IMG/VR virus record: IMGVR_UViG_2690316318_000016
Direction: 5' to 3' (one strand)
DNA: 13,080 bases
Origin: a virus
Lineage: Duplodnaviria > Heunggongvirae > Uroviricota > Caudoviricetes
Shown here: positions 1 to 13,080 of the stretch, one piece after another
Numbering within the stretch: the stretch's first letter is position 1
Layout of the letters: the number at the start of each line of letters is the position of its first letter
Position numbers and translations under genes: made by a program
The notes under the pieces: generated by a model
Seen by the model: only the letters and a program-made list of their open reading frames with translations
The model's database searches: none
Told to the model about the DNA's origin: nothing

Positions 1-249
1 ATGCGCACACAGGTTGTATTGCAAAAATGGGGTAATAGCATTGCCCTTCGACTAACGGGAAACCTTAAAACCGTTCCGGGTTTTTCAGTGGGTGATATCG
101 TCAACGTTGAAATTAGTGAAAAGGGGCTTTTTGTAGAAAAGCCTGCACGCCGTCGCCTGAGTGAAGCCGAATTACTCGCCGGGATAACGCCAGTTACAGC
201 GCACGCGGACGAAATTGCCACCCCATTCAATGAGGAGGTTGATTACTGA
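1..249 (+). CDS. MazE/PemI-family antitoxin (AbrB/SpoVT-type DNA-binding domain), 82 aa
   Basis: ORF MRTQVVLQKWGNSIALRL... has the WGNS motif and size typical of MazE/ChpS/PemI antitoxins. Its stop overlaps the start of the downstream toxin gene (TGATG, 247-251). The ORF begins at the window edge, so no promoter is visible. Confidence 0.8.
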   Translation: MRTQVVLQKWGNSIALRLTGNLKTVPGFSVGDIVNVEISEKGLFVEKPARRRLSEAELLAGITPVTAHADEIATPFNEEVDY

Positions 250-593
250 TGTTTGTACCTAAGCGTGGTGATATTTGCTGGCTGGATTTTGAGCCGCAGA
301 AAGGAAAAGAGATCGGAAAGTATCGCCCGGCACTCATACTATCCCATGAGCAATATAACCGACTCACCGGGCTTGTCATATGCTGCCCCATAAGTACGAG
401 CATACGAAATGCTCCCACAGAAGTTCCGGTAACAAATCTGGACGCCCCCAGCGTGGTAGCAACCACTCTCATTCAAACCCTTGACTGGCGTCAGCGGAAA
501 GCGCGCTTAATCACAGAGGCAGAAGATGGGGTATTTAATGATGTGCTTGAAAGAGTCATTACCCTGATTGGTGGAGAGCATCTGCTTAAGTAA
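249..593 (+). CDS. MazF/PemK-family endoribonuclease toxin, 114 aa
   Basis: ORF MFVPKRGDICWLDFEPQKGKEIGKYRPALILS... resembles the MazF/ChpB/PemK N-terminus (RGD..W.DF.P..G.E....RPA..LS). Size and position directly after the antitoxin with a 1-nt stop/start overlap fit a type II TA pair. Confidence 0.85.
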   Translation: MFVPKRGDICWLDFEPQKGKEIGKYRPALILSHEQYNRLTGLVICCPISTSIRNAPTEVPVTNLDAPSVVATTLIQTLDWRQRKARLITEAEDGVFNDVLERVITLIGGEHLLK

Positions 594-636: not shown

Positions 637-1908
637 CTATTCTTTCCAGTCAATCCCATCCAGTAAGCACCCTGCCTCATATTTCCCCACCACCCAGTCA
701 AGGTTACAGGACTCATAGAACGCGAGGCGATTATACTGAGGCTCGTTTTTTACCAGGCCACGAACGGAACCACGCTGCCAGTACAGACACAGATTGGCAA
801 GAGGTGTGATCAATACAGCATTGTCCGGGAAAAATGGAACGGTTACAGCCGGGAGATTCCCCAGAACGGGATTTTTAATGATTTCCTCGTTAAGCAAAAT
901 TTCCTGATTCATCTGCGATGGATCAAGACGGTTTATCAAAGGCCATTGTTTACGGACCAGCGTATTGTGACTGCATACGGCCACAATGCCTTCCTGCCAC
1001 TGTTCATCAATCATGGATTGCCAGGCATCCAGAACGAGCGCATCTATCGTATGGTGTGTACCGCGTGTATTACTTTTCGGTGATGAAACAGAAAGGCCGC
1101 TGATAACCCTTCCCGCCGCTTCATTTCGAAACTTCTGCAACCAGCCCACGCCACAATCGTCACGCCCCGGATATGTTTTAGGGTCAGATTTGGCGGCATA
1201 ATGTGTGCCGTTAAAACCAATCTGAATTAAATCCAGCCATTTCCGGCGTTCAAAAGCGGCCCGCGCACTTCCTTCAAGGCCGTTTGCGGATGCGTGAGCA
1301 TCGGCATTGTCGTAGTTCAACGCAAAATCAAAATTAACCTGCTCGCAGCGGTAGCCCCTTGAAACCAGTGAATGCGCCTGTAGTGGCGAACGGCGCTCGT
1401 GAGGTGGCGATGTACGTGCCAACGGCCCCGAAGCGTCTACCAGCACAACCCGACCTGATATATCCGTAACAGGCACGGGAGTTATTTCAGCAAGGAAATT
1501 TGCCTGCCATCCACTGGCAAGCGTTGCACTCTGGCGAGGAACGGGTTCAACTTCTGACGAATAGCGCGCAGTGTCACCGGAAAAGTGCAAATCCTTCGGA
1601 TGTTTTCCGGTTATCGACTCGATAGCGCAATTGAAAACCATCTGAGCCTGTTGATTTCGTTGTGATACAACAGAATCAGCAGTGCAATTATAACGCTCAA
1701 TGCCGTCGTTATTACCCCCACCGCTTGCAGTATGCAGGGTGTGAAGCTCAAGCTCACGCTCCAGTTTTTGATATTCATTGTCCAGCGCGCGACGCGTCTC
1801 ATCGCTTATGCTTGCTGTGTTTGCTTTCAGGCGATTCCGGGACATTAATCCCCTGAGTCGGCTCACTATATCAGCGCCGTGCAAATGTGGAGTATTCAGA
1901 CCGCCCAT
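637..1908 (-). CDS. Hypothetical protein, 423 aa (start at Met48 of the 470-aa track ORF), unknown function
   Basis: Long open frame in GC-rich DNA. The ATG at 1906-1908 overlaps the TAA of the upstream 236-aa ORF (TAATG), suggesting translational coupling. No Walker A or other motif recognised. The track ORF's first 47 codons (1909-2049) overlap the upstream gene in another frame and are probably not translated. Confidence 0.6.
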   Translation of the reverse strand: MGGLNTPHLHGADIVSRLRGLMSRNRLKANTASISDETRRALDNEYQKLERELELHTLHTASGGGNNDGIERYNCTADSVVSQRNQQAQMVFNCAIESITGKHPKDLHFSGDTARYSSEVEPVPRQSATLASGWQANFLAEITPVPVTDISGRVVLVDASGPLARTSPPHERRSPLQAHSLVSRGYRCEQVNFDFALNYDNADAHASANGLEGSARAAFERRKWLDLIQIGFNGTHYAAKSDPKTYPGRDDCGVGWLQKFRNEAAGRVISGLSVSSPKSNTRGTHHTIDALVLDAWQSMIDEQWQEGIVAVCSHNTLVRKQWPLINRLDPSQMNQEILLNEEIIKNPVLGNLPAVTVPFFPDNAVLITPLANLCLYWQRGSVRGLVKNEPQYNRLAFYESCNLDWVVGKYEAGCLLDGIDWKE

Positions 1909-2618
1909 TACTGCCACCCCCGGCAGAGTTCTCTGCCCTCCGCAAGGTCGCGCATTTTTTCTGGATTCTGTCGCGCCGCGCTCCATTGTACAGGTGAAGG
2001 GGCGTTCCTGATTGCGCGGCTTACCGAATCCGGGAGTTTCTCCGGGCAATAACGCAGCGGGCTGGAGGTGTCGCTTTCGGTATCGTTAATCCGGCCGCGA
2101 ATCATCCCGACACTTTCAGCAGTATCTGTCGCTTTCAGTGTTTCGCATATTTTCTTTTCTGCGTTATACAGCGGCTGGCCAAGCAGCTCACATAAACCAC
2201 GAATCAATAACAGAGCAGGGGTCAGCTCGTTAATCAGTTCGGGAAGTGCTTTTGCAAATATCTCTGCCCGCAACTTATTATCAATGCTTTCGTAAGCACA
2301 ACCAGCCTCTGCCGCGTTATAACGACACTCCAGTAGCCTGATGCGCGCCTCATCATGCAGCACCCGCAGACGCTCAAGATTTTCTCGCGCCACACCCGCC
2401 TGAATGGATAATTTCGCGGAGGCTTCCGTTTTTACGCCCAGCGCAGACAGGATTGAGTTCTGCCAGTCACGATCGAGAGATTCCAGCTCCCCTTTCGTCT
2501 GTTCGATAGTTGCTTCCAGATTGGTGATTAATGATTCCTGTTCACTGAGTTTTGCCATGGCTGTATCAAACTGTGCTTTACATACCTGATGTTCGGCGCT
2601 TGCCTGAGTTATATCCAT
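1908..2618 (-). CDS. Hypothetical coiled-coil protein, 236 aa; possibly a Psu/Sid-like capsid-associated protein (weak, by context only)
   Basis: ORF MDITQASAEHQVCKAQFDTAMAKLSEQESLITNLEATIEQTKGELESL... is rich in E/L/A/K with a heptad-like pattern. It sits in a late-gene-like region near an Ogr/Delta-type activator. The Psu resemblance is from memory and unverified. The last ~45 residues are low-complexity, so a frameshift near 2050 cannot be excluded. Confidence 0.55.
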   Translation of the reverse strand: MDITQASAEHQVCKAQFDTAMAKLSEQESLITNLEATIEQTKGELESLDRDWQNSILSALGVKTEASAKLSIQAGVARENLERLRVLHDEARIRLLECRYNAAEAGCAYESIDNKLRAEIFAKALPELINELTPALLLIRGLCELLGQPLYNAEKKICETLKATDTAESVGMIRGRINDTESDTSSPLRYCPEKLPDSVSRAIRNAPSPVQWSAARQNPEKMRDLAEGRELCRGWQ

Positions 2619-2783: not shown

Positions 2784-3017
2784 ATGAAAAAACAAAAGAA
2801 AATGCGATGCGTATTACGCTGTATTCGTATCCCGCACGAAATCGACCATAAAATAAATCAGATATGTCAGGACAGAGAGATGAACTACTCCCAGTGCGTC
2901 AGAATGTTTATCAGTCAGGGAATTAAGGCCGGGGAAAAGCAGGAAGAAGACTGCAACGGGCGCAATGTAGCGGGGGATGTGTGGGCCTGGGCAAATGACC
3001 AGAACCACACGACGTAA
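2784..3017 (+). CDS. Small putative ribbon-helix-helix-like DNA-binding protein, 77 aa
   Basis: ATG at 2784 is preceded by GGGAGG (the track ORF starts 13 codons earlier without a ribosome-binding site). MRCVLRCIRIP followed by two predicted helices fits a strand-helix-helix pattern. Function is not established. Confidence 0.5.
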   Translation: MKKQKKMRCVLRCIRIPHEIDHKINQICQDREMNYSQCVRMFISQGIKAGEKQEEDCNGRNVAGDVWAWANDQNHTT

Positions 3018-3067: not shown

Positions 3068-3250
3068 CTATGAAGTTTTCGACTTCCTGCGCTTAGTAAT
3101 GCGTACAAACGACTCAAGCGTACAAAAACAAGCCCCACACTCAATATTATTGCACTGGTAATACGTTCTGTAGATGTTTTGTTCGTGTTCTTCCAACGAA
3201 CGACCACGGGTGCGGGCTGAAGCGCCACAGGCCGGGCAAGGGAAAGACAT
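3068..3250 (-). CDS. ogr: Ogr/Delta-family zinc-finger late transcription activator, 60 aa
   Basis: ORF MSFPCPACGASARTRGRSLEEHEQNIYRTYYQCNNIECGACFCTLESF has the C-x2-C...(22)...C-x4-C spacing and YxQC motif characteristic of P2 Ogr / P4 Delta. Confidence 0.8.
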   Translation of the reverse strand: MSFPCPACGASARTRGRSLEEHEQNIYRTYYQCNNIECGACFCTLESFVRITKRRKSKTS

Positions 3251-3540
3251 ATCACGCTCCTCTTACTGGTGTGAAATTTAACCTATTATATCTTCTGCCG
3301 CCCCCTCTGGCTGTATCAAATAAACCCGCAGCAGTCGCCGCGTATTACGCACGGGCGCGCCGTTCCCATGCTCACTCGTCACATTCCCCGTATCAGTTCT
3401 CTCTTGCCGTAAGAACGGCTCTGGCTGGCGATAAAACTAACCCGGTCGGGGCATTCCCGCAGCCTTTAGCGAAAATGTAATTTACCCCCTGAAACGCGTG
3501 CTGTTCCCCCGTCACCTGCGCGCGAAAAACTCACCGTTTT

Positions 3541-3639
3541 TTGTGCACGCACGAAATCGCCCTCCGGGCGCGCCAGTACTGGGCCGGATGGGCAAAAAGT
3601 TACTCTAAAAAATTGTGCAAATTTGTGCACTTTTGTGCA
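3541..3639. promoter_or_regulatory. Array of TTGTGCA motifs (3541, 3613, 3623, 3633); the last three phased at exactly 10 bp and forming overlapping GTGCA/TGCAC palindromes
   Basis: Read directly: aTTGTGCAaaTTTGTGCActTTTGTGCAg. Ten-bp phasing puts the sites on one helix face, as in operator or iteron arrays. The region is GC-rich and noncoding-looking, between the ogr-like gene and the iteron cluster. Confidence 0.4.
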
Positions 3640-3865
3640 GATGAACAACAGCGTCAAAAAGAGTGCTTTTGAGAGATTTTTTATGGCAACTGCGCCGCGT
3701 GTATTACGTTTTTTACCATCCCCGCCGCGCATGTACATACTTCATTTTTCTGCCAAACAACAGGGCAACTCCCCGTGACTGACAGCCCCAAAAAAATCAA
3801 TGATTGATGTTGCATTTTTGTTAGAGGTCAGGCCAGTTGTTTTGGGGCTCTGCCTCATAATCCGG

Positions 3866-4437: not shown

Positions 4438-5439
4438 TTACTCTGCAGGCTCTTTTTGTCCGGTAAATACCATGTCGGCTACCGGGTTAAATCTCATGGC
4501 ATCTGCCAGATAGTCGGGAGAAAAATGCGCATAAGTCATCGTTTGCTGAATAGTGGCATGTCCCAGAATCCGTTGCAGGGTAACGATGTTTCCCCCGTTC
4601 ATCATGAAATGCGTGGCGAACGTATGACGCATCACATGAGTCGCCTGCCCTTTTGGCAAATCAGGCTTCACCTCCTGGAGGATCTCGCGAAACCGGAGAT
4701 AATCGACCTCGTACAGCGGCCCGGTTCGGCGGGTTTTAATCAGCGAGAGCACGGCATCAGACACCGGAACCGAACGGGACTTCCCGTTCTTGGTGTTGAA
4801 GAACGTCACGCGATTACCGACGATATGCTCTCCGCATAATTCCGCCGCCTCACCCCACCGCGCCCCCGTAGAAAGACACAGAATGGCGACACGACGCGCA
4901 TCACCTTCGAGTCGTTCAAGAAGCCGCTCAATCTCATCATCAGAAAGAAAGGCCATCTCTGTATTCTGAATTTTTAGCTTACGTATATTGCGCACGGGGT
5001 TCGGGTTGTGAAAGCTCCCTGCTTCAATCAACACCGTGAACATGGTAGACAGAACGCATAAATCACGATTAATACTGGACGGCATTAATCCGGCCTGTAA
5101 TTTCTCTGACCGATATTCAAGCATAAATTTTCGCGTCATCTGACTGGCGCGAGGATCTCTCATTTCACGAATCACTTTCTCCAGCCGGATCCTGTAGGTA
5201 TCGCCGTAAGCCTGATTGCGCCCGTCAAGCATCCACCATGTATCAAGCAACTCTGATAATCGCCGCCGATCAGCAGGTTTAGCCAGCCATGGGTTATTAT
5301 GGAAATTCTGCAAAACATATTGTTCGAACTTCTCTGCACTTCCTTTCCGGGCAAAAATTTTACGTATCCGTTTGCCGTATGCCCCTTGCGGCCTGATATC
5401 TAGCAACCATCTTCCATCATCCATCTTTCTGATCGACAT
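4438..5439 (-). CDS. int: Tyrosine recombinase, P2-type integrase family, about 333 aa
   Basis: C-terminal catalytic region LPKGQATHVMRHTFATHFMMNGGNIVTLQRILGHATIQQTMTYAHF (HxxR, GH and catalytic Y) and box I STGARWGEAAEL closely resemble P2 Int as recalled. Start chosen at the ATG at 5437-5439 (MSIRK...) because an AAGGAGA ribosome-binding site precedes it and it lies 2 nt after the primase stop; the track start at 5475 overlaps the primase. Confidence 0.9.
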   Translation of the reverse strand: MSIRKMDDGRWLLDIRPQGAYGKRIRKIFARKGSAEKFEQYVLQNFHNNPWLAKPADRRRLSELLDTWWMLDGRNQAYGDTYRIRLEKVIREMRDPRASQMTRKFMLEYRSEKLQAGLMPSSINRDLCVLSTMFTVLIEAGSFHNPNPVRNIRKLKIQNTEMAFLSDDEIERLLERLEGDARRVAILCLSTGARWGEAAELCGEHIVGNRVTFFNTKNGKSRSVPVSDAVLSLIKTRRTGPLYEVDYLRFREILQEVKPDLPKGQATHVMRHTFATHFMMNGGNIVTLQRILGHATIQQTMTYAHFSPDYLADAMRFNPVADMVFTGQKEPAE

Positions 5440-5441
5440 AC

Positions 5442-8111
5442 TTAAGGTCTCTCCTTGTAACTGAATATCCGGCATTTCAGCACTTCCGGCTCTCTGGCTT
5501 CGGCTACCCCTTTTCCGGCGTTTGCCTGTCTGGACACCTCACTACGAATTGTTTTACGACCTGTCAACGGTCGGGAGCGTCCAGCCCCGAGCAACTCAAT
5601 CATTTCGCGATCGGTTCGGATCTCCACGCGGTGAATGGCGGCTGCCTGTGCCAGTTGCGGAATACTGATAGCAATCCCTTCGCGGCATCCCTTGCCGTAG
5701 TGGTTTACACCGTATTTTGTTATGCCGTCCAGGAAGTCGAACGCCTCCCAGAATTCCACCACTTCCGGTAAATCAGCCGCCGCCGCTTTAACCTGCGCTG
5801 TTGCCATTTGTTCCAGTTCCAGACATGTGGCATCAAGCCATTCATCCGGGATATCGATAACGCATTTCAGCGCCCTGACCAGCGCGATAATTTGCGCGTG
5901 ATTTTTGGCGATACGGGGATGGCGAATATTTTCGCAGCCGCAAAGGCGTTCCGTTTCAGCTGGCGACACTTCCAGGAACGTTTGCATAATCGCCCGTTCC
6001 TGACTTACCGCCCGATGAATAAACCCCGATACCTTCTCGACGGGGTAGAGTTCCAGCCGTCTTGCCGCCAGTCGGGTATCAGGTGAATGGCGTTTTTTGT
6101 CGGTGTAGATGCGTATCAGGCGCTCAATAATTGCCGGAGAGGCGTTTACCCGCGCATTCTGCGCAATCACGATAGCGCCCTTAAAATCCGGGTCATAGGT
6201 GTTGTTATTGTTGGCTTTAACACCACGAACGCCGATACCACCGCCGTTATAGAGACTTTTCAGGTTATCGAAGTCAAACGCACCTCTTTTTTGCGCATTG
6301 TCTCCCCGGTCCGCTTCAATCAGAACAACAGGTAATCCGGCGACCTGTCCAAAGGTGCGCTTCCAGCCCGCCTCTGATCCTTTGGTTGGATCAACGCCTT
6401 CATAGTTGTCACGACCGCACAACCGCCAGCAAAAATCAATCAATGTTGATTTACCCGTTCCGGGTTCCCCGGTGACTTCAAGGAAGGGGAAGGATTCTTC
6501 TTTATCCCGGATTTGTTCGCTGAACAGGGAGCCCAACCAGAAAGCCAGGGTAATAATTCCCTTTTCACCAAAAGCCAGCCAGAGATCTTCCACCCAGGAC
6601 TCTGTAAACTCATCCGTTTTTTTGTAGTTAATCTGTAATGTGGGTTTTTCGCTTAATGGTTTTGCGTTTATGCCATCAATTTCAAAATAATCCTCATCAT
6701 TGATTTCATAAGTTTTACCCTTGTAAACGGCAATATCATTAAACAGCCATGCCCCAATTCCCTTGTTGTATCCGATAAAATCCTGACCAATAACCTCTTT
6801 TATTGCGGGAAGGTCATTTTTTATTAATGCGTCAAGCTGCGTAGTCGTTCCGGTATAAATACCACCTTTTGCCACGTGCAGCAGGCGTTTTTTAAATTCA
6901 GATGAGGATGTTAATTGTCCTGATGTAAAGGTGTTTTTCACCGTAGCACCATCCGGGAATGTAACGCGGAAGTAATACCATGCTTCATCCGTGTCATTGT
7001 TTCGAATGTAATAAAGCGGCACTGGGTTACAGTTTGCGATTTCTTTTACAGCGCCGGATTCCTTAAGTGCAATTTTTCGCGCTTCATCTTCGTCAACACT
7101 TCGCTCATTAATGACACGTTCAACAGCCTTCATATAGCGCTCAATATCCAGCTTGAACCAGAAAACACGGTTATCAAAGGTAAAATAAAACTCCTTCCGC
7201 TCACGAAAGGAAAATATTATCAGCGCCTTATCTCTCGGCGATTTCGCCAGCAATAAATCACCGTAATAACGGTATCTTTTCACATCATGGCCACGCAGCT
7301 TTCCGGCGATGTGTAAATCATTCCAGTCGCGTTTATTGTTGTTTTTACCTGGCAACGCCGCTGCCGTTCTCCAGCCGTCTTCGGCGCTGCGTTCTGCATG
7401 TTTTTTCGCGTAACGTTCACCCGCACGCCCGTTATCCAGGGCCCACACAATAACCGGACGGGGATTATCCCCGCACAGCTTCGCCAGCTCTTCCAGCGCC
7501 TTATCAGGGTAGTTCACGGCAGACATGACAGAAACGGCCGCAATGCCATTCTGGTTAAGGCTGATGGCATCAAAGATGCCCTCACAAATCCAGATTTCTT
7601 TGGCCTTGCTTAAATCTGCTCCCGGATAAGCCCACCACAACCCCTTGTAGCTGCCGGAAAAATTCGCCTTGCGCGCGAAGCGTCCCGGTCGGTCTATGAT
7701 GCGCTCCCACCACACGCCGTCAGCCAGCGTAAAACGCACAGTAGCGGCCTGTTCGCCGCTTTCCTTGTCCTGGTATCGCTCCTGAGTAAATGCGCCCTTC
7801 AGTGGCCCCACAGCAATATTGCGCGCTTCCTGAAGATAAGCTGCCGCCGCTGCATATGGCTCATCTTTCGTGCTGATATAACGATCTGACCATGATGAAA
7901 ACACATCCGGGTAAAGTTCTTTGGTCAGCAGGTCTGTACCGCATTTATTTTCGCGCCCACAGTGTACGATGTACGGCTTCTCAAGACTGGTAAACAGTTC
8001 TTTCTTTCCACATTGCGGACAAACACCATAGCGAAGATAGTTATTTTCTTCTTTAAAGTTGTAATCACGGATAAGACGGTTAATAATCTCTTTTCTGGTG
8101 TTATTTTTCAT
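5442..8111 (-). CDS. P4 alpha-like DNA primase/helicase (zinc ribbon + TOPRIM-type primase + P-loop NTPase), about 889 aa
   Basis: N-terminal zinc-binding motif CPQCGKK...HCGRENKCG; TOPRIM-like WICEGIFDAISL; Walker A TGEPGTGKST and Walker B VVLIEAD. Start placed at the ATG at 8109-8111 (MKNNTRK...); the track's GTG start at 8132 would translate the poly-C tract. Confidence 0.9.
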   Translation of the reverse strand: MKNNTRKEIINRLIRDYNFKEENNYLRYGVCPQCGKKELFTSLEKPYIVHCGRENKCGTDLLTKELYPDVFSSWSDRYISTKDEPYAAAAAYLQEARNIAVGPLKGAFTQERYQDKESGEQAATVRFTLADGVWWERIIDRPGRFARKANFSGSYKGLWWAYPGADLSKAKEIWICEGIFDAISLNQNGIAAVSVMSAVNYPDKALEELAKLCGDNPRPVIVWALDNGRAGERYAKKHAERSAEDGWRTAAALPGKNNNKRDWNDLHIAGKLRGHDVKRYRYYGDLLLAKSPRDKALIIFSFRERKEFYFTFDNRVFWFKLDIERYMKAVERVINERSVDEDEARKIALKESGAVKEIANCNPVPLYYIRNNDTDEAWYYFRVTFPDGATVKNTFTSGQLTSSSEFKKRLLHVAKGGIYTGTTTQLDALIKNDLPAIKEVIGQDFIGYNKGIGAWLFNDIAVYKGKTYEINDEDYFEIDGINAKPLSEKPTLQINYKKTDEFTESWVEDLWLAFGEKGIITLAFWLGSLFSEQIRDKEESFPFLEVTGEPGTGKSTLIDFCWRLCGRDNYEGVDPTKGSEAGWKRTFGQVAGLPVVLIEADRGDNAQKRGAFDFDNLKSLYNGGGIGVRGVKANNNNTYDPDFKGAIVIAQNARVNASPAIIERLIRIYTDKKRHSPDTRLAARRLELYPVEKVSGFIHRAVSQERAIMQTFLEVSPAETERLCGCENIRHPRIAKNHAQIIALVRALKCVIDIPDEWLDATCLELEQMATAQVKAAAADLPEVVEFWEAFDFLDGITKYGVNHYGKGCREGIAISIPQLAQAAAIHRVEIRTDREMIELLGAGRSRPLTGRKTIRSEVSRQANAGKGVAEAREPEVLKCRIFSYKERP

Positions 8112-8119
8112 ATATAAAT

Positions 8120-8159
8120 CCCCCCCCCCCACTGCACCTTTTGCAGTGGGGTTTTTATT
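8120..8159. promoter_or_regulatory. 11-nt homopolymeric C tract (8120-8130) plus a 10-bp GC-rich stem-loop (CCCCACTGCA-ccttt-TGCAGTGGGG, 8127-8151) followed by TTTTTATT, just upstream of the primase start
   Basis: Read directly. On the plus strand it looks like an intrinsic terminator. On the minus-strand mRNA the hairpin and G-run sit 8 nt upstream of the primase AUG, where a G-run could act as the Shine-Dalgarno. Confidence 0.45.
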
Positions 8160-10154: not shown

Positions 10155-10249
10155 ATTTCCCCCTATGTTTCTGAACTTTCGGGGGAGATTTTTGTTTTAC
10201 GGGGTTTTGAAAGCAAGTATTAAAGGTCTTATTAAGATGCTTGCTGGTC

Positions 10250-11302
10250 TTACTGAGATGATGCCTTAATCCATCTTGATATAGTACTTTTATCAAAGCG
10301 CATATTGAGTCCTGCCTCTTTTGCTTCCGCGGTCAATATATCAGCAAGTTTTACCGGATTGTTTTCGAGTTCTTTATAATGAATAACAAGCATCGCACGA
10401 AAAAAATCCTTCATTGTTTTAGATAATCGTTCTATATTGTTTTTATTGGTGCATATATCTTTCTCTCCATCCTCAGAGCTTAATATATTGTTACCCGCAC
10501 ACAAATATAAAGTGTCTGCCAATGGATTAACATAATCTTTTCTTAACTCGCTATTGAAGCTTGTAGCATTTTGTATTTTTAAAAAATCACTCTTTAAGAT
10601 ATATAAATCACCAATATCAAAAGAAACATCCTCAGTAACAATTACTCCTATATGTATATCAACGTCAGAAGCAATTATAATATTGCTATTAATTATTCGG
10701 TTGGCTTTAAACTTCTTATTAAAATCATAGTTGGCAAAAAAACTTCTCCCCAAAGCGAAAATGCCGCCTATTTCAACAAAATACTTATGGTATTTTTCTT
10801 GAATACCTTTAAATACTGGTGGTACAACTGCCACAGCTCTTTCATCCGTTGCTATTCGATATACACTATATATGTGATAATTTTCCCCATAATATAACCC
10901 CCTGTTATAATAATTTAACAAAGCAAATGCAGTATCAATTGCTATGTCACCAAATTTGGGCGCTACATATGAATGACTTAGAGATTCGCACATTGAATCA
11001 AATATAATTCTCGACTTGGTTTTTATATAATTAAAACCATGGTGTTCTGCCGCCCTTTCTGAAATGGCATCAAGGTCAGATAACCGTGATTTACATGGTT
11101 CTGAATCCAGAAACTTACGCAGACAATCGAAATTAACCACATCTTTTTCATCTGGGATATTTAATACTCCATATGCAGATTCAATTTTTATACAAATACG
11201 AATGCAGCCTGTCACAGCCCAATGAATAAGATCATCAATATCGCAATCTAATAACTTTGCCGCGCGCTCAATAGGATAGTAATCTCTTAGTGGTAACGTC
11301 AT
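10250..11302 (-). CDS. Hypothetical protein, 350 aa, strongly AT-rich orphan gene in the integrase-alpA cargo slot; possible HTH-like segments at both termini
   Basis: Single uninterrupted ORF in DNA visibly far more AT-rich than the rest of the element; it starts 17 bp after the integrase stop. N-terminal PIERAAKLLDCDIDDLIHWAVTGCI and C-terminal FDKSTISRWIK resemble HTH segments; the central ~250 aa has no recognisable motif. Confidence 0.7.
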   Translation of the reverse strand: MTLPLRDYYPIERAAKLLDCDIDDLIHWAVTGCIRICIKIESAYGVLNIPDEKDVVNFDCLRKFLDSEPCKSRLSDLDAISERAAEHHGFNYIKTKSRIIFDSMCESLSHSYVAPKFGDIAIDTAFALLNYYNRGLYYGENYHIYSVYRIATDERAVAVVPPVFKGIQEKYHKYFVEIGGIFALGRSFFANYDFNKKFKANRIINSNIIIASDVDIHIGVIVTEDVSFDIGDLYILKSDFLKIQNATSFNSELRKDYVNPLADTLYLCAGNNILSSEDGEKDICTNKNNIERLSKTMKDFFRAMLVIHYKELENNPVKLADILTAEAKEAGLNMRFDKSTISRWIKASSQ

Positions 11303-11318
11303 TCTTTTCGCTCACATA

Positions 11319-12518
11319 TTATTTATCTTTAACCATTTTTTCTAAACATTCAAGCCAGTCATTTAGAGCCTTTAATTTGAATGGGATATACTGGCTAAGA
11401 TTATAGTTAAATTCTGCGGAGCCAGCATTATATACGTGACCTAATAATGACTCGACAATATGAGGCATTACCCCCATGTTGTTTAACCCAGTTGAAAATG
11501 TCCGTCTTAAATCGTGTAGCGTCCATTTTTCATTATGTCCGAATATTTTATACATTCTGCGACCTTTCAGAGAAACAGCTCTATGCGTTCTCTCCTCACC
11601 CAAAAGTAAGCCCGTCCTCCCGGTTTCCTGTTTTAGCTCTTTTAACCAGTCTCTTATACCTTCGGGAATTGGCCGAATAATCTTTTTGTTACTTTTACTG
11701 TTATTTCTTGGAACAATCCAAACCCATTCATTAAAATCCCATTCAATCCAATGAGAACGGCGAATCTCTACAGTTCTAGCCCCAAAGACAATAAGCAACT
11801 TTATTAATCTAGAAAAATAAATATCCCGATGTTTCTCCTTTGCAAAATACCAAAGATCTGATAGTTCGGCATCACTCAAAACACGGTCGCGCTGTCCGGC
11901 AGATTCCCCTACATCGGTTAACGTTAAATGAACAAGGGCATCACTGATGGCATAACGCCGAACATTGCAAAACCGCAATGCCTGTTTGGAGAGTTGAAAC
12001 ATACGCCCCGCCGTTTTTGAACTTATAGCGCGAATCTCATCAAAACATTTTACCCAATGGCGAGTATCGCACCGTGATAACGGATAATGGCCTATTCTGG
12101 GGTAGACATGTTTGCAGAATTGCGCCCTAATCAATTCCTCATCTTTGCGCTTATGTCTTGCATAATTGACCAACCAATATTCCAACGCATCTCGAACAGT
12201 AACAGGAGCACGGGATTCTTCAGTAAAAAGTTGGAGTTCAATTTTTGGATCAAGACCATTAGCCAACCATTGACGGCAACGCTCACGCCACATCCTGGCA
12301 TCTTTCAGACTAATATCAGGGTAATTCCCTAGAGTAAGACGAATAACTGAACTCTCACGCCCTCCAAGGCGATATGAAAAAACCCAGCTCACATGCCCTT
12401 TAGTTGATAACCTGACCCCTAACCCCTCTCCGTCAGCAAGCATTTCAACACGATCCCTATGCGTTCCTTGCAGCGCCTTTAGTTTCCTGTCGCTGAGCTT
12501 ATTCGTTCCAGACATCAT
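11319..12518 (-). CDS. int: P4-type tyrosine integrase (DUF4102-like N-terminal arm-binding domain + phage integrase catalytic domain), about 399 aa
   Basis: N-terminus KLSDRKLKALQG...GEGLGVRLSTKGHVSWVFSYRLGGRE...LTLGNYPDISLKDAR matches the P4 integrase-family N-terminal domain. C-terminus HDLRRTFSTGL...LLGHV carries the HxxR and GH motifs. Start placed at the ATG at 12516-12518 (the track start is GTG at 12521). Confidence 0.9.
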   Translation of the reverse strand: MMSGTNKLSDRKLKALQGTHRDRVEMLADGEGLGVRLSTKGHVSWVFSYRLGGRESSVIRLTLGNYPDISLKDARMWRERCRQWLANGLDPKIELQLFTEESRAPVTVRDALEYWLVNYARHKRKDEELIRAQFCKHVYPRIGHYPLSRCDTRHWVKCFDEIRAISSKTAGRMFQLSKQALRFCNVRRYAISDALVHLTLTDVGESAGQRDRVLSDAELSDLWYFAKEKHRDIYFSRLIKLLIVFGARTVEIRRSHWIEWDFNEWVWIVPRNNSKSNKKIIRPIPEGIRDWLKELKQETGRTGLLLGEERTHRAVSLKGRRMYKIFGHNEKWTLHDLRRTFSTGLNNMGVMPHIVESLLGHVYNAGSAEFNYNLSQYIPFKLKALNDWLECLEKMVKDK

Positions 12519-12553: not shown

Positions 12554-12864
12554 TGAAATATTAATATCCAGAAAAAATGAAATCGAGCATGAACACAAAA
12601 TCACTACAACATAATGATTTTGATTGATTTTTTATATTCAGCGGGTAAACACTAGAAAAGTCAGGAACATAAAAAACATTACTTCTACAGTATGTTTCAT
12701 ATCTCTAACCATATGATTTAAAAACAAATCACTTCGCACGGGCGGGTTTCGGCACCGCAACAAAGCGCAAGACATGCAGTATACCAGCAAAACTATTCAT
12801 AAGCGGAATCCGTTAATAAAGTTCAATTTGTGAAAAGAAACGCATTGGTTCGCCGCAGGACAGC

Positions 12865-13080
12865 ATGCCGTTCCCGATGCCCGTTCCGGTACCGTTCAAT
12901 ATGGGAATGCCGATGCTGGGCGGGCCGATCTCTACTGCGGGTAATGTGCTGTTTATCGCCGCTACAGCAGATAACTACCTGCGCGCTTACAACATGAGCA
13001 ACGGTGAAAAACTGTGGCAGGCGCGTTTACCCGCAAGGGGCCAGACAACGTGCGCTTTGTTCATGCCGGATGCGGCGTGA
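12865..13080 (+). pseudogene. Orphan fragment resembling the C-terminal beta-propeller region of a PQQ-dependent (quinoprotein) dehydrogenase such as Gcd; truncated and running into a REP element
   Basis: Translation ...PFPMPVPVPFNMGMPMLGGPISTAGNVLFIAATADNYLRAYNMSNGEKLWQARLPA... matches the C-terminal region of E. coli-type glucose dehydrogenase as recalled, then diverges into REP-derived codons and stops at 13078-13080. The frame is open only from 12820, so at most about 85 codons are present. Identity is from memory, not a search. Confidence 0.45.
13063..13080. repeat. Start of a REP (repetitive extragenic palindrome) element, GCCGGATGCGGCGTGA, cut by the window end
   Basis: Matches the 5' part of the classic enterobacterial REP consensus GCCGGATGCGGCGTGAACGCCTTATCCGGCCTAC. 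Confidence 0.5.

Follow-up and report, generated by a model that had tools for sequence, protein, structure and literature searches.

P4 is the textbook example of a satellite without structural genes, and it reshapes the capsid protein of its helper phage by means of the protein Sid. Satellites of this type have been described as lacking capsid genes and are defined, also in recent large surveys, by the psu-delta-sid module (PMC9122126, PMC8628076, PMC10085698, PMC13586616, PMC13612085). For the locus described here, the closest known system is the pair formed by P4 Sid and the P2 capsid protein gpN (PMC7552001). We analyzed a 13,080-nucleotide stretch of viral DNA (IMG/VR record IMGVR_UViG_2690316318_000016, "the window" in what follows), which is essentially the whole of a ~13-kb P4-like island, and in particular two adjoining genes at 637-2618. 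They encode a clear homologue of gpN and a protein that appears to be a remote homologue of Sid. Because P4-type satellites are described as having no capsid gene, the presence of one in such an island is unusual.

Several other satellites encode capsid proteins or scaffolds. The Ccm protein of SaPIbov5 is a homologue of the capsid protein of its helper phi12 and gives small capsids (PMC8569155), and PmCI172 encodes a capsid homologue whose function was untried in that work (PMC6092414). The capsid-forming phage-inducible chromosomal islands (cf-PICIs) carry, as summarized in PMC13612085, a complete head and packaging set of capsid, portal, protease, connectors, TerS and TerL. In the PLE satellites of Vibrio cholerae, TcaP is an external scaffolding cage that redirects assembly to small capsids (PMC10945586).

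The two genes of the window and their junction are as follows (lengths in amino acids, aa; ORF, open reading frame).

637 to 1908, minus strand: capsid (gpN-like) ORF of 423 aa, with its ATG at 1908 and a frame that is open upstream to a TTG at 2049
1908 to 2618, minus strand: Sid-like ORF of 236 aa, from the ORF listing and homology
1906 to 1910, minus strand: TAATG stop/start overlap read directly in the sequence, in which the Sid-like TAA and the capsid ATG have one base in common

By sequence comparison the 423-aa protein is clearly a divergent homologue of the P2-family major capsid protein. It matched Pfam PF05125 (Phage_cap_P2) over profile positions 38-327 of 327 (E 3e-72, 243.8 bits, cutoff 27) and PHROG 70 (major head protein, E 2e-76), and its score of 134.2 bits for NCBIfam TIGR01551 lay under the equivalog cutoff of 219.65. 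BLASTP aligned residues 86-419 with residues 3-340 of P2 gpN (34% identity, E 6e-67). The P88 capsid protein was matched at 35% identity (E 8e-62), and so was 7jw1_A (E 1e-54), the gpN chain of the P4 procapsid structure 7JW1 in the PDB; from this homology we infer an HK97 fold. The RefSeq name of the protein is "P2 family phage major capsid protein". An earlier note on this DNA had recognized no motif in the protein, and had itself named homology to a known structural protein as something that would count against its view of a pair of unknown genes; such homology is what we found.

The protein falls in a separate capsid clade, whose members (360-497 aa; Escherichia, Salmonella, Klebsiella, Erwinia, and Pectobacterium) score 267-386 bits against one another, as compared to at most 203 bits for phage capsids. 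Identity of 35% to the capsid protein of P88 points to an old lineage and not to a recent capture from the helper. Within the N-arm, at residues ~119-131, the clade keeps the segment PSPxQxGELAA, which is equivalent to "EPSVTQTLMN" in gpN.

Residues 1-85 form an N-terminal extension beyond gpN. It consists of predicted helices at 14-29 and 36-60, which would make a helical hairpin, and after them a low-complexity linker whose length varies. For the capsid protein, an AlphaFold2 model based on 16 sequences had a predicted local distance difference test score (pLDDT) of 52, with values of 67-84 solely in the helical segment; it was too poor for a fold search and was left unused there. The possibility that the extension is a fused gpO scaffolding domain was considered and set aside: BLAST to P2 gpO gave E 1.3, no alignment to P88 gpO was obtained, and none of seven capsid-clade members had a Phage_GPO match. 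A relation at the level of fold could still exist.

The 236-aa product was harder to place. Neither it nor 16 relatives had any meaningful match in Pfam, PHROG, NCBIfam or PADLOC, and a word-indexed protein search returned solely near-identical E. coli proteins. An exhaustive HMMER search of 1.8 billion representatives yielded about 20 relatives of roughly 240 aa, with the motifs W52...G61-x-x-T-E and, at the C-terminus, PSPxQ...LAxGxExCxG. When a five-member family profile was run against 177,635 PDB sequences, the sole match was Sid (7jw1_E), co-linear and weak (E 0.35), and Sid was retained, in second place, at E 0.42 with a 17-member profile. Comparison of the family with an 18-member Sid alignment by hhalign gave 82% probability, E 1e-5 and a score of 42.8, with columns 33-137 co-linear with columns 35-139 around a common W...G-V-x-T-E motif. 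As a control for coiled-coil composition, the columns of the Sid alignment were shuffled singly and in blocks of 7 and 21 (150 each, 450 in all). The maximum scores were 19.6, 25.5, and 35.9, respectively, and reversed profiles scored 11.6 and 13.2.

The predicted structure is consistent with these matches. The AlphaFold2 model of the 236-aa protein (pLDDT 93, predicted template modelling score 0.78) consists of helices throughout: two of them form a long stem, and the C-terminal part beyond it is a further helical region. In the model this amounts to a Sid/Psu-type fold. Among 350,542 chains searched with Foldseek, Sid ranked first (probability 0.98, template modelling score 0.5 over the full length) and its P4 paralogue Psu second. 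In the same local hhalign set-up the family matched Sid and not Psu, and Sid itself did not match Psu; this places the new family on the Sid side of the fold family. Within a small set of ORFs, a Sid-family hidden Markov model (HMM) found the Klebsiella orthologues with E 5e-6 to 1e-5. The same model had no match to the window's protein at E 1e-3, where the likeness is confined to profile-profile comparison and fold. The conserved C-terminal motif is co-linear with the capsid-binding helix alpha6 of Sid, in a low-confidence part of the alignment. No Phage_GPO match and no protease domain were found that would make the protein a gpO.

We therefore regard the 236-aa protein as a remote homologue of Sid and not as a member at the family level, with moderate confidence from sequence and good confidence from fold and context. 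The guess of the earlier note that this coiled-coil protein might be a capsid-interacting protein of the Psu/Sid type thereby gains support, on the Sid side. Given the matches to Sid and gpN, both products of the operon correspond to two proteins of one solved assembly, 7JW1. A P-S-P-x-Q segment with small or hydrophobic residues is common to the capsid and the Sid-like clades (SPSPxQxxxAR at ~206-216 of the Sid-like protein). This could be coincidence, or it could be a shared recognition or processing element.

The two ORFs on the minus strand, their TAATG junction and their convergence on a MazEF pair had all been described in the earlier note and were confirmed by the sequence. The overlap had also been taken to indicate translational coupling; it is real, and coupling is compatible with it at the level of sequence without being proved. 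An AGGAG lies 8 nt 5' of the 236-aa ATG and a run of G (GGGGGTGG) just 5' of the 423-aa ATG. The exact TAATG overlap is limited to the E. coli lineage of the window. In other genera the gap between the two genes is -8, 0, +17, or +19 nt, and this kept spacing bears out the view of the pair as one tightly linked unit.

Among 5,426 complete E. coli genomes, 57 contained the 1982-bp two-gene unit, which is annotated in RefSeq as two coding sequences (CDSs). All copies except one, which is interrupted by an insertion sequence (IS), had at least 80% query coverage (56/57). The sole disrupted copy is that of strain TK3046 (H12/H80), with an IS100-type element within the capsid gene. Among the E. coli alleles the ratio of nonsynonymous to synonymous substitution rates (dN/dS) was 0.30-0.36 for the Sid-like gene and 0.10-0.18 for the capsid gene, with 0.07-0.13 in the gpN-like core of the latter. 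Purifying selection acts on both, and they are real genes, not chance ORFs. The frame between the TTG at 2049 and the ATG at 1908 is just out-of-frame read-through of the 3' end of the upstream gene.

To place the pair among related loci, we collected loci with a capsid-clade alignment, one genome per species, and classified them by HMMs. Flanks were fetched up to 10 kb on each side, except for one locus (L013) with just a 2.6-kb fetch. Together with 21 others, the window made up a set of 22 satellite-type loci from about ten enterobacterial genera, among them Escherichia, Klebsiella, Salmonella, Erwinia, Enterobacter, Izhakiella, Kluyvera, Apirhabdus, and Symbiopectobacterium. A Sid-like ORF lay directly 5' of the clade capsid gene in every one of the 22, and an Ogr/Delta gene was found nearby, upstream of the Sid-like gene, in all except L013 (21/22). 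None of gpO, gpM, gpL, gpP, gpQ, and Psu was found in the fetched flanks of these loci, and a phmmer search with P4 Psu at E 1e-3 matched none of them. In the 29 phage-type loci, on the other hand, gpO upstream and gpM downstream were present in all and gpL, gpP, and gpQ in nearly all, while a Sid-like gene was never present. No portal, protease, connector or terminase gene was found in the window, which holds the whole island.

The terminal block has the same order in the Klebsiella, Salmonella, Erwinia, and second E. coli contigs: Ogr/Delta, a reverse ORF, a 237-242-aa protein, and the capsid homologue. What varies from island to island is the cargo around this block, which includes MazEF, uracil-DNA glycosylase, restriction-modification, and HicAB genes. 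The earlier note had hinted at a variable hotspot at this place. Judging from these sequences, the pair is a conserved core of the satellite lineage, and the cargo varies around it.

A further link to the P2 family is the packaging site. We found it by blastn with query sequences that lie beyond gpQ in the P2-like prophages we had fetched.

3487 to 3640, minus strand: cos-type packaging region, by homology to the cos region of P88-like phages (Xuanwuvirus)
3498 to 3516, minus strand: putative 19-nt cohesive-end core GGTGACGGGGGAACAGCAC, a unique match in the window
3612 to 3640, minus strand: array of three TGCACAA repeats within the cos region

A block of ~150 bp is common to the satellites and one phage sublineage. 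It matched P88, vB_EcoM-569R5, 500465-2, 520873, 503458, Citrobacter phage Shae_phiSM, Klebsiella phage 3LV2017, and Enterobacter phage phiT5282H at 70-81% identity (best E 5e-34). In P88 and two E. coli prophages it is located ~290 bp past the portal stop codon, which is the P2-family position of cos. The putative core is almost identical to that of P88 and, when set against the P2/P4 core, has 5 mismatches in 19 positions. The canonical P2/P4 core was not found with up to 3 mismatches allowed, nor by blastn with the P2 and P4 cos regions. A RefSeq "hypothetical protein" of 90 aa at 3466-3738 on the minus strand overlaps the cos block; since it lies over cos and has no family match, it is probably not a real gene.

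The P88-type block occurs in about 21% of all E. coli genomes. Co-occurrence of satellite and helper was approximated from the number of block copies per genome record. At least one further copy was present in 39 of the 56 satellite-bearing E. coli genomes, a figure to be read as no more than suggestive, since clonal strains are numerous in the set and two satellites are present in each of four genomes.

The region upstream of the operon separates it from a divergently oriented small ORF.

2619 to 2783, no strand: divergent control region between the Sid-like/capsid operon and a 77-aa ORF, with a GTAATACR cluster and a dyad
2784 to 3017, plus strand: 77-aa ORF, divergent from the operon, a RefSeq CDS
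3068 to 3250, minus strand: Ogr/Delta-type zinc-finger late-gene activator of 60 aa (Pfam PF04606, E 3e-11)
597 to 614, no strand: GC-rich hairpin between the MazF and capsid stop codons, from a scan for terminator-like structures

A TGT-N15-ACA dyad at 2692-2712 is centered 84 nt before the Sid-like ATG, and the late promoter of the P88-like gpO gene has a dyad of the same type centered 82 nt upstream. The exact TGT-N12-ACA Ogr box was absent 5' of the Sid-like gene of the window, where the N15 variant is present; the TGT-N12-ACA form occurs in the Salmonella island at 92 nt and in the second E. coli island at 81 nt. Copies of GTAATACR are located at 2630, 2671, 2699, and 2720 in the control region, and the 77-aa ORF has a fifth just within its boundary, at 2810. 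Ten copies are present in the window as compared to 0.69 expected, and none of 200 shuffled sequences reached ten. Nine of the ten are located between 2630 and 3707. Clustering of the motif is also seen in the Salmonella island (L004, 8161-9255) and not in the Klebsiella and Erwinia islands.

The 77-aa ORF had NCBIfam matches of the VapB/RelB type with E 0.005-0.007, well below cutoff. A reverse ORF of ~59-77 aa occupies the corresponding position in the contigs from Klebsiella (L002), Salmonella, and Erwinia and in the second one from E. coli; it was called in all but one. From these sequence features, the 77-aa product is a candidate regulator of the ribbon-helix-helix (RHH) or antitoxin type. 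The GTAATACR repeats are likely an operator array for a lineage-specific regulator, possibly this RHH-like protein. The sequence of the control region fits a late promoter under Ogr/Delta-type activation that may be modulated by the RHH-like protein, and the hairpin at 597-614 is a probable bidirectional terminator for the two convergent units.

How might the pair work? Taking together the two protein identities, the conserved module, the purifying selection, the lack of other structural genes, and the cos shared with P88, we favor, as somewhat better than an even proposition, the explanation that it serves a P4-like lineage without psu as its capsid-hijack module. The satellite would build small capsids from a capsid subunit that it encodes itself, together with a matching external scaffold of the Sid-like kind, and a P88-like helper would supply the rest.

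The proposed sequence of events starts with the helper, a P88-like phage of the P2 family (Xuanwuvirus), which would begin its late programme. An Ogr/Delta-type activator, either that of the helper or the 60-aa protein of the satellite, would then switch on the Sid-like/capsid operon, and the divergent gpN-type subunit would be produced along with its cognate Sid-like protein. By analogy with P4 Sid, the latter may bind capsid hexamers from the outside via its conserved C-terminal helix, and its coiled-coil stem would link hexamers into a small shell of the T=4 type. Such a shell could hold the ~13-kb satellite genome and not the ~35-kb genome of the helper, and it could consist of satellite subunits only or of a mixture with helper gpN.

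In HK97, the delta domain acts as a removable internal scaffold. The ~85-aa helical extension and the segment equivalent to the propeptide would, by this analogy, probably form a built-in internal scaffold that is removed on maturation. The helper would provide the portal, gpO protease, head-completion protein, and tail, and its terminase would recognize the P88-type cos at 3498-3516 and package the satellite genome.

Several points weigh against this proposal. The lineage is known from its sequence, and cleavage at the putative cohesive-end core is a prediction from that sequence. With a capsid protein just 34-35% identical to those of P2 and P88, compatibility with the helper's portal, protease, and head-completion protein is not assured. 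The poor capsid model makes the fold of the extension a low-confidence one, and no similarity between the extension and the gpO scaffold was detectable. No exact Ogr/Delta-type dyad was found in the Klebsiella and Erwinia islands. Finally, the co-occurrence of satellite and helper is confounded by the clonal strain sets and by the four genomes with two satellite copies.

A more far-reaching version, which we hold only tentatively, is that the lineage is a branch heading to the capsid-forming condition. Its head would be made wholly of its own gpN-type subunit, with the N-terminal part as a delta-domain-like internal scaffold and a co-evolving Sid-like cage, and P88-like helpers would contribute the remainder. 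If so, the matched capsid-scaffold pair would confer immunity to gpN escape mutations of the "sir" type in the helper and a wider helper range, and the lineage would be an intermediate between classical P4 and satellites of the cf-PICI type.

Another possibility is that the module serves mainly to poison helper head assembly. Its products would join helper gpN in shells that are aberrant or too small, and the module would act chiefly as an anti-phage or competition device. The satellite systems that redirect capsid size, namely Sid, CpmAB, Ccm, and TcaP, also block helper reproduction (PMC6893505, PMC8569155, PMC10945586), the module sits among defense and toxin-antitoxin cargo, and the capsid homologue is too diverged for the NCBIfam equivalog. 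However, the island retains a phage-type cos, an integrase, a replication module, and Ogr/Delta, a full life-cycle kit that needs a capsid for travel. Strong purifying selection on the whole gpN core (dN/dS as given above) suggests a properly folding shell subunit, and PADLOC gave no defense-system match, its lone hit being a spurious coiled-coil match to JetC with E 0.005. Interference and self-packaging can moreover coexist. We consider interference as the main role unlikely.

It could also be speculated that the 236-aa protein acts like Psu, in capsid decoration, Rho inhibition or both, and that the capsid homologue by itself determines capsid size, in the manner of Ccm. The structural search, with Psu as its second match, and the profile comparison, in which the family reached Sid and not Psu, both bear on this idea, which we regard as improbable.

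More doubtful still is a decaying head cluster of a P2-like prophage, trapped in the island as a functionless remnant. The capsid gene does stand alone, without gpO, gpM, or gpL, and one E. coli copy is disrupted by an IS; however, the same partner in the same order across about ten genera, the separate deep clade with its bit scores, the purifying selection, and the 56 intact copies out of 57 leave this explanation strongly disfavored.

The suggestion of the earlier note that a single gene of ~650 aa has been split by a frameshift, as a pseudogene or in a programmed manner, can be dismissed with near certainty: the capsid frame is indeed open upstream to the TTG and a database protein (P0008) fuses parts of both products, but in each of the 21 related satellite loci there are two ORFs, each with a start codon of its own, at spacings of -8 to +19 nt, RefSeq has two CDSs in 57 genomes, each product matches a separate full-length known protein (Sid or gpN), and the 2-kb contig of P0008 carries two frameshifts. 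The note had proposed a comparison with homologous islands as a check, and two ORFs were present in all of the related loci. P0008 was rejected as a natural fusion, being from that single contig.

The other features of the window are these.

1 to 249, plus strand: MazE ORF, convergent with the operon
249 to 593, plus strand: MazF (Pfam PemK_toxin, E 4e-25)
4438 to 5475, minus strand: second tyrosine recombinase of 345 aa (Int_N and Phage_integrase), with a 34-nt overlap with the 3' end of the primase gene
5442 to 8132, minus strand: replication protein of 896 aa (Toprim_2/3), with a sub-threshold DUF5906 match
10194 to 11348: AT-rich ORF of 350 aa between the integrase and AlpA genes, no family match

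The island therefore contains a P4-type integrase (Arm-DNA-bind_3 and Phage_integrase domains), the 350-aa protein, AlpA (PF05930, E 3e-7), an Icd-like protein, small ORFs, the Toprim primase, the second tyrosine recombinase, cos, Ogr/Delta, the small reverse ORF, the Sid-like and capsid genes, and the MazEF cargo. MazE/MazF also adjoins the capsid gene in the Salmonella island (L004, 11450-12033) and in L012 (11365-11957). Its position beside the capsid gene in Salmonella and E. coli islands at two chromosomal sites indicates satellite cargo and not a gene of the host locus.

The replication genes differ from island to island. The 896-aa protein of the window had no phmmer match to P4 alpha at E 1e-3, while the Klebsiella, Salmonella, Erwinia, and Apirhabdus islands matched P4 alpha with E 1e-53 to 1e-56. 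The primases of the Klebsiella, Salmonella, and Erwinia islands (L002, L004, and L006, respectively) are alpha-like, with Zn_Ribbon_Prim, Toprim_3, and DUF927. These differing primases show that the capsid module combines with different replication modules. Behind the primase gene, the Klebsiella island and the second E. coli island have a homologue of the second recombinase, of 325-329 aa, and those of Salmonella and Erwinia do not; does this recombinase serve in dimer resolution or in inversion?

Strain E9 has, in the slot of the 350-aa ORF, a gene of about the same length that is unrelated to it. This looks like a second variable cargo slot, and a defense gene could lie there. The right end of the window (12835-13080) is a degenerate 3' remnant of gcd, encoding glucose dehydrogenase, that is 90-93% identical to the intact gene. 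As compared to strain E9, where an intact gcd adjoins the island, ~2.1 kb of gcd is missing here, plus ~140 bp. Strain GF60 has an IS21-family insertion of the ISSso4 type between Ogr/Delta and cos (L012, 14728-17035).

Compared to the sid-delta-psu module of P4, which acts on P2 gpN (7JW1), the island is alike in its integrase, AlpA, primase, Ogr/Delta-type activator, and ~240-aa all-helical protein of the Sid fold. It is also alike in having cos near the module, a presumed P2-family helper, and a genome about one third the size of the helper's (~13 kb here). In contrast to P4, this lineage has no psu, and its Ogr/Delta protein of 60 aa is monomer-sized where P4 Delta has 166 aa. The gene order (delta, reverse ORF, sid-like, capsid) is different, the Sid-like protein is remote from P4 Sid and has a different conserved C-terminus, and the primase of the window is not detectably alpha-like. 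The cos site is of the P88 type, and the island has a gpN-type capsid gene of its own, which P4 does not. SatelliteFinder uses int, alpha, alpA, ash/epsilon, delta, sid, and psu as the P4-like core set; of its markers we found the integrase, AlpA, and Ogr/Delta, and neither psu nor a canonical sid. The cos site, outside that set, matches a P2-family helper.

The gpO-gpN arrangement of P2 phages, including P88, is similar in that the gene of an assembly partner is tightly linked 5' of the capsid gene, and the capsid core is homologous over nearly the full length of gpN. The partner here has the Sid fold and is not gpO, the capsid protein has its ~85-aa extension, and neither gpM nor gpL follows.

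SaPIbov5 and PmCI172 resemble this island as cos-packaged satellites with a diverged copy of the helper's HK97-fold capsid protein, a likeness known here from the genes. On the other hand, they are satellites of the PICI or SaPI (Staphylococcus aureus pathogenicity island) type from Firmicutes and Pasteurellaceae with siphovirus or Mu-like helpers and have no Sid-like scaffold partner, and Ccm is unrelated in sequence to gpN. The cf-PICIs likewise have their own capsid protein and a helper that supplies other virion parts; compared to them, this lineage has just the capsid subunit and the external scaffold, with a helper-type cos and no terminase or portal. TcaP is alike as an external scaffold encoded by a satellite, a function that we assign here by analogy. 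TcaP is unrelated, however, and acts on the helper's coat protein, and PLE has no capsid subunit of its own.

No P4-like lineage that combines a gpN homologue with a Sid-like protein was described in the open-access papers and bioRxiv preprints that we searched, although a description may exist elsewhere. Recognition of the Sid-like partner, the conserved module, the lineage, and the P88-type cos appears to be new; the capsid annotation was already public. Kizziah et al. stated that the occurrence of the Sid/Psu fold outside P4 was unknown (PMC7552001).

These data suggest that, in about ten enterobacterial genera, a satellite lineage has swapped the psu-delta-sid module for a remote relative of Sid and a capsid subunit of its own. 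The 236-aa "hypothetical protein" can now receive a name, and satellites of this lineage may be under-detected or wrongly classified by HMM sets made for canonical sid and psu. If our reading is correct, the family would be a third, older-looking branch of the Sid/Psu fold. The two proteins would provide a natural cognate scaffold-capsid pair for studying how the triangulation number is set and how satellites escape helper resistance, and the lineage would be a link between capsid-stealing and capsid-forming satellites.

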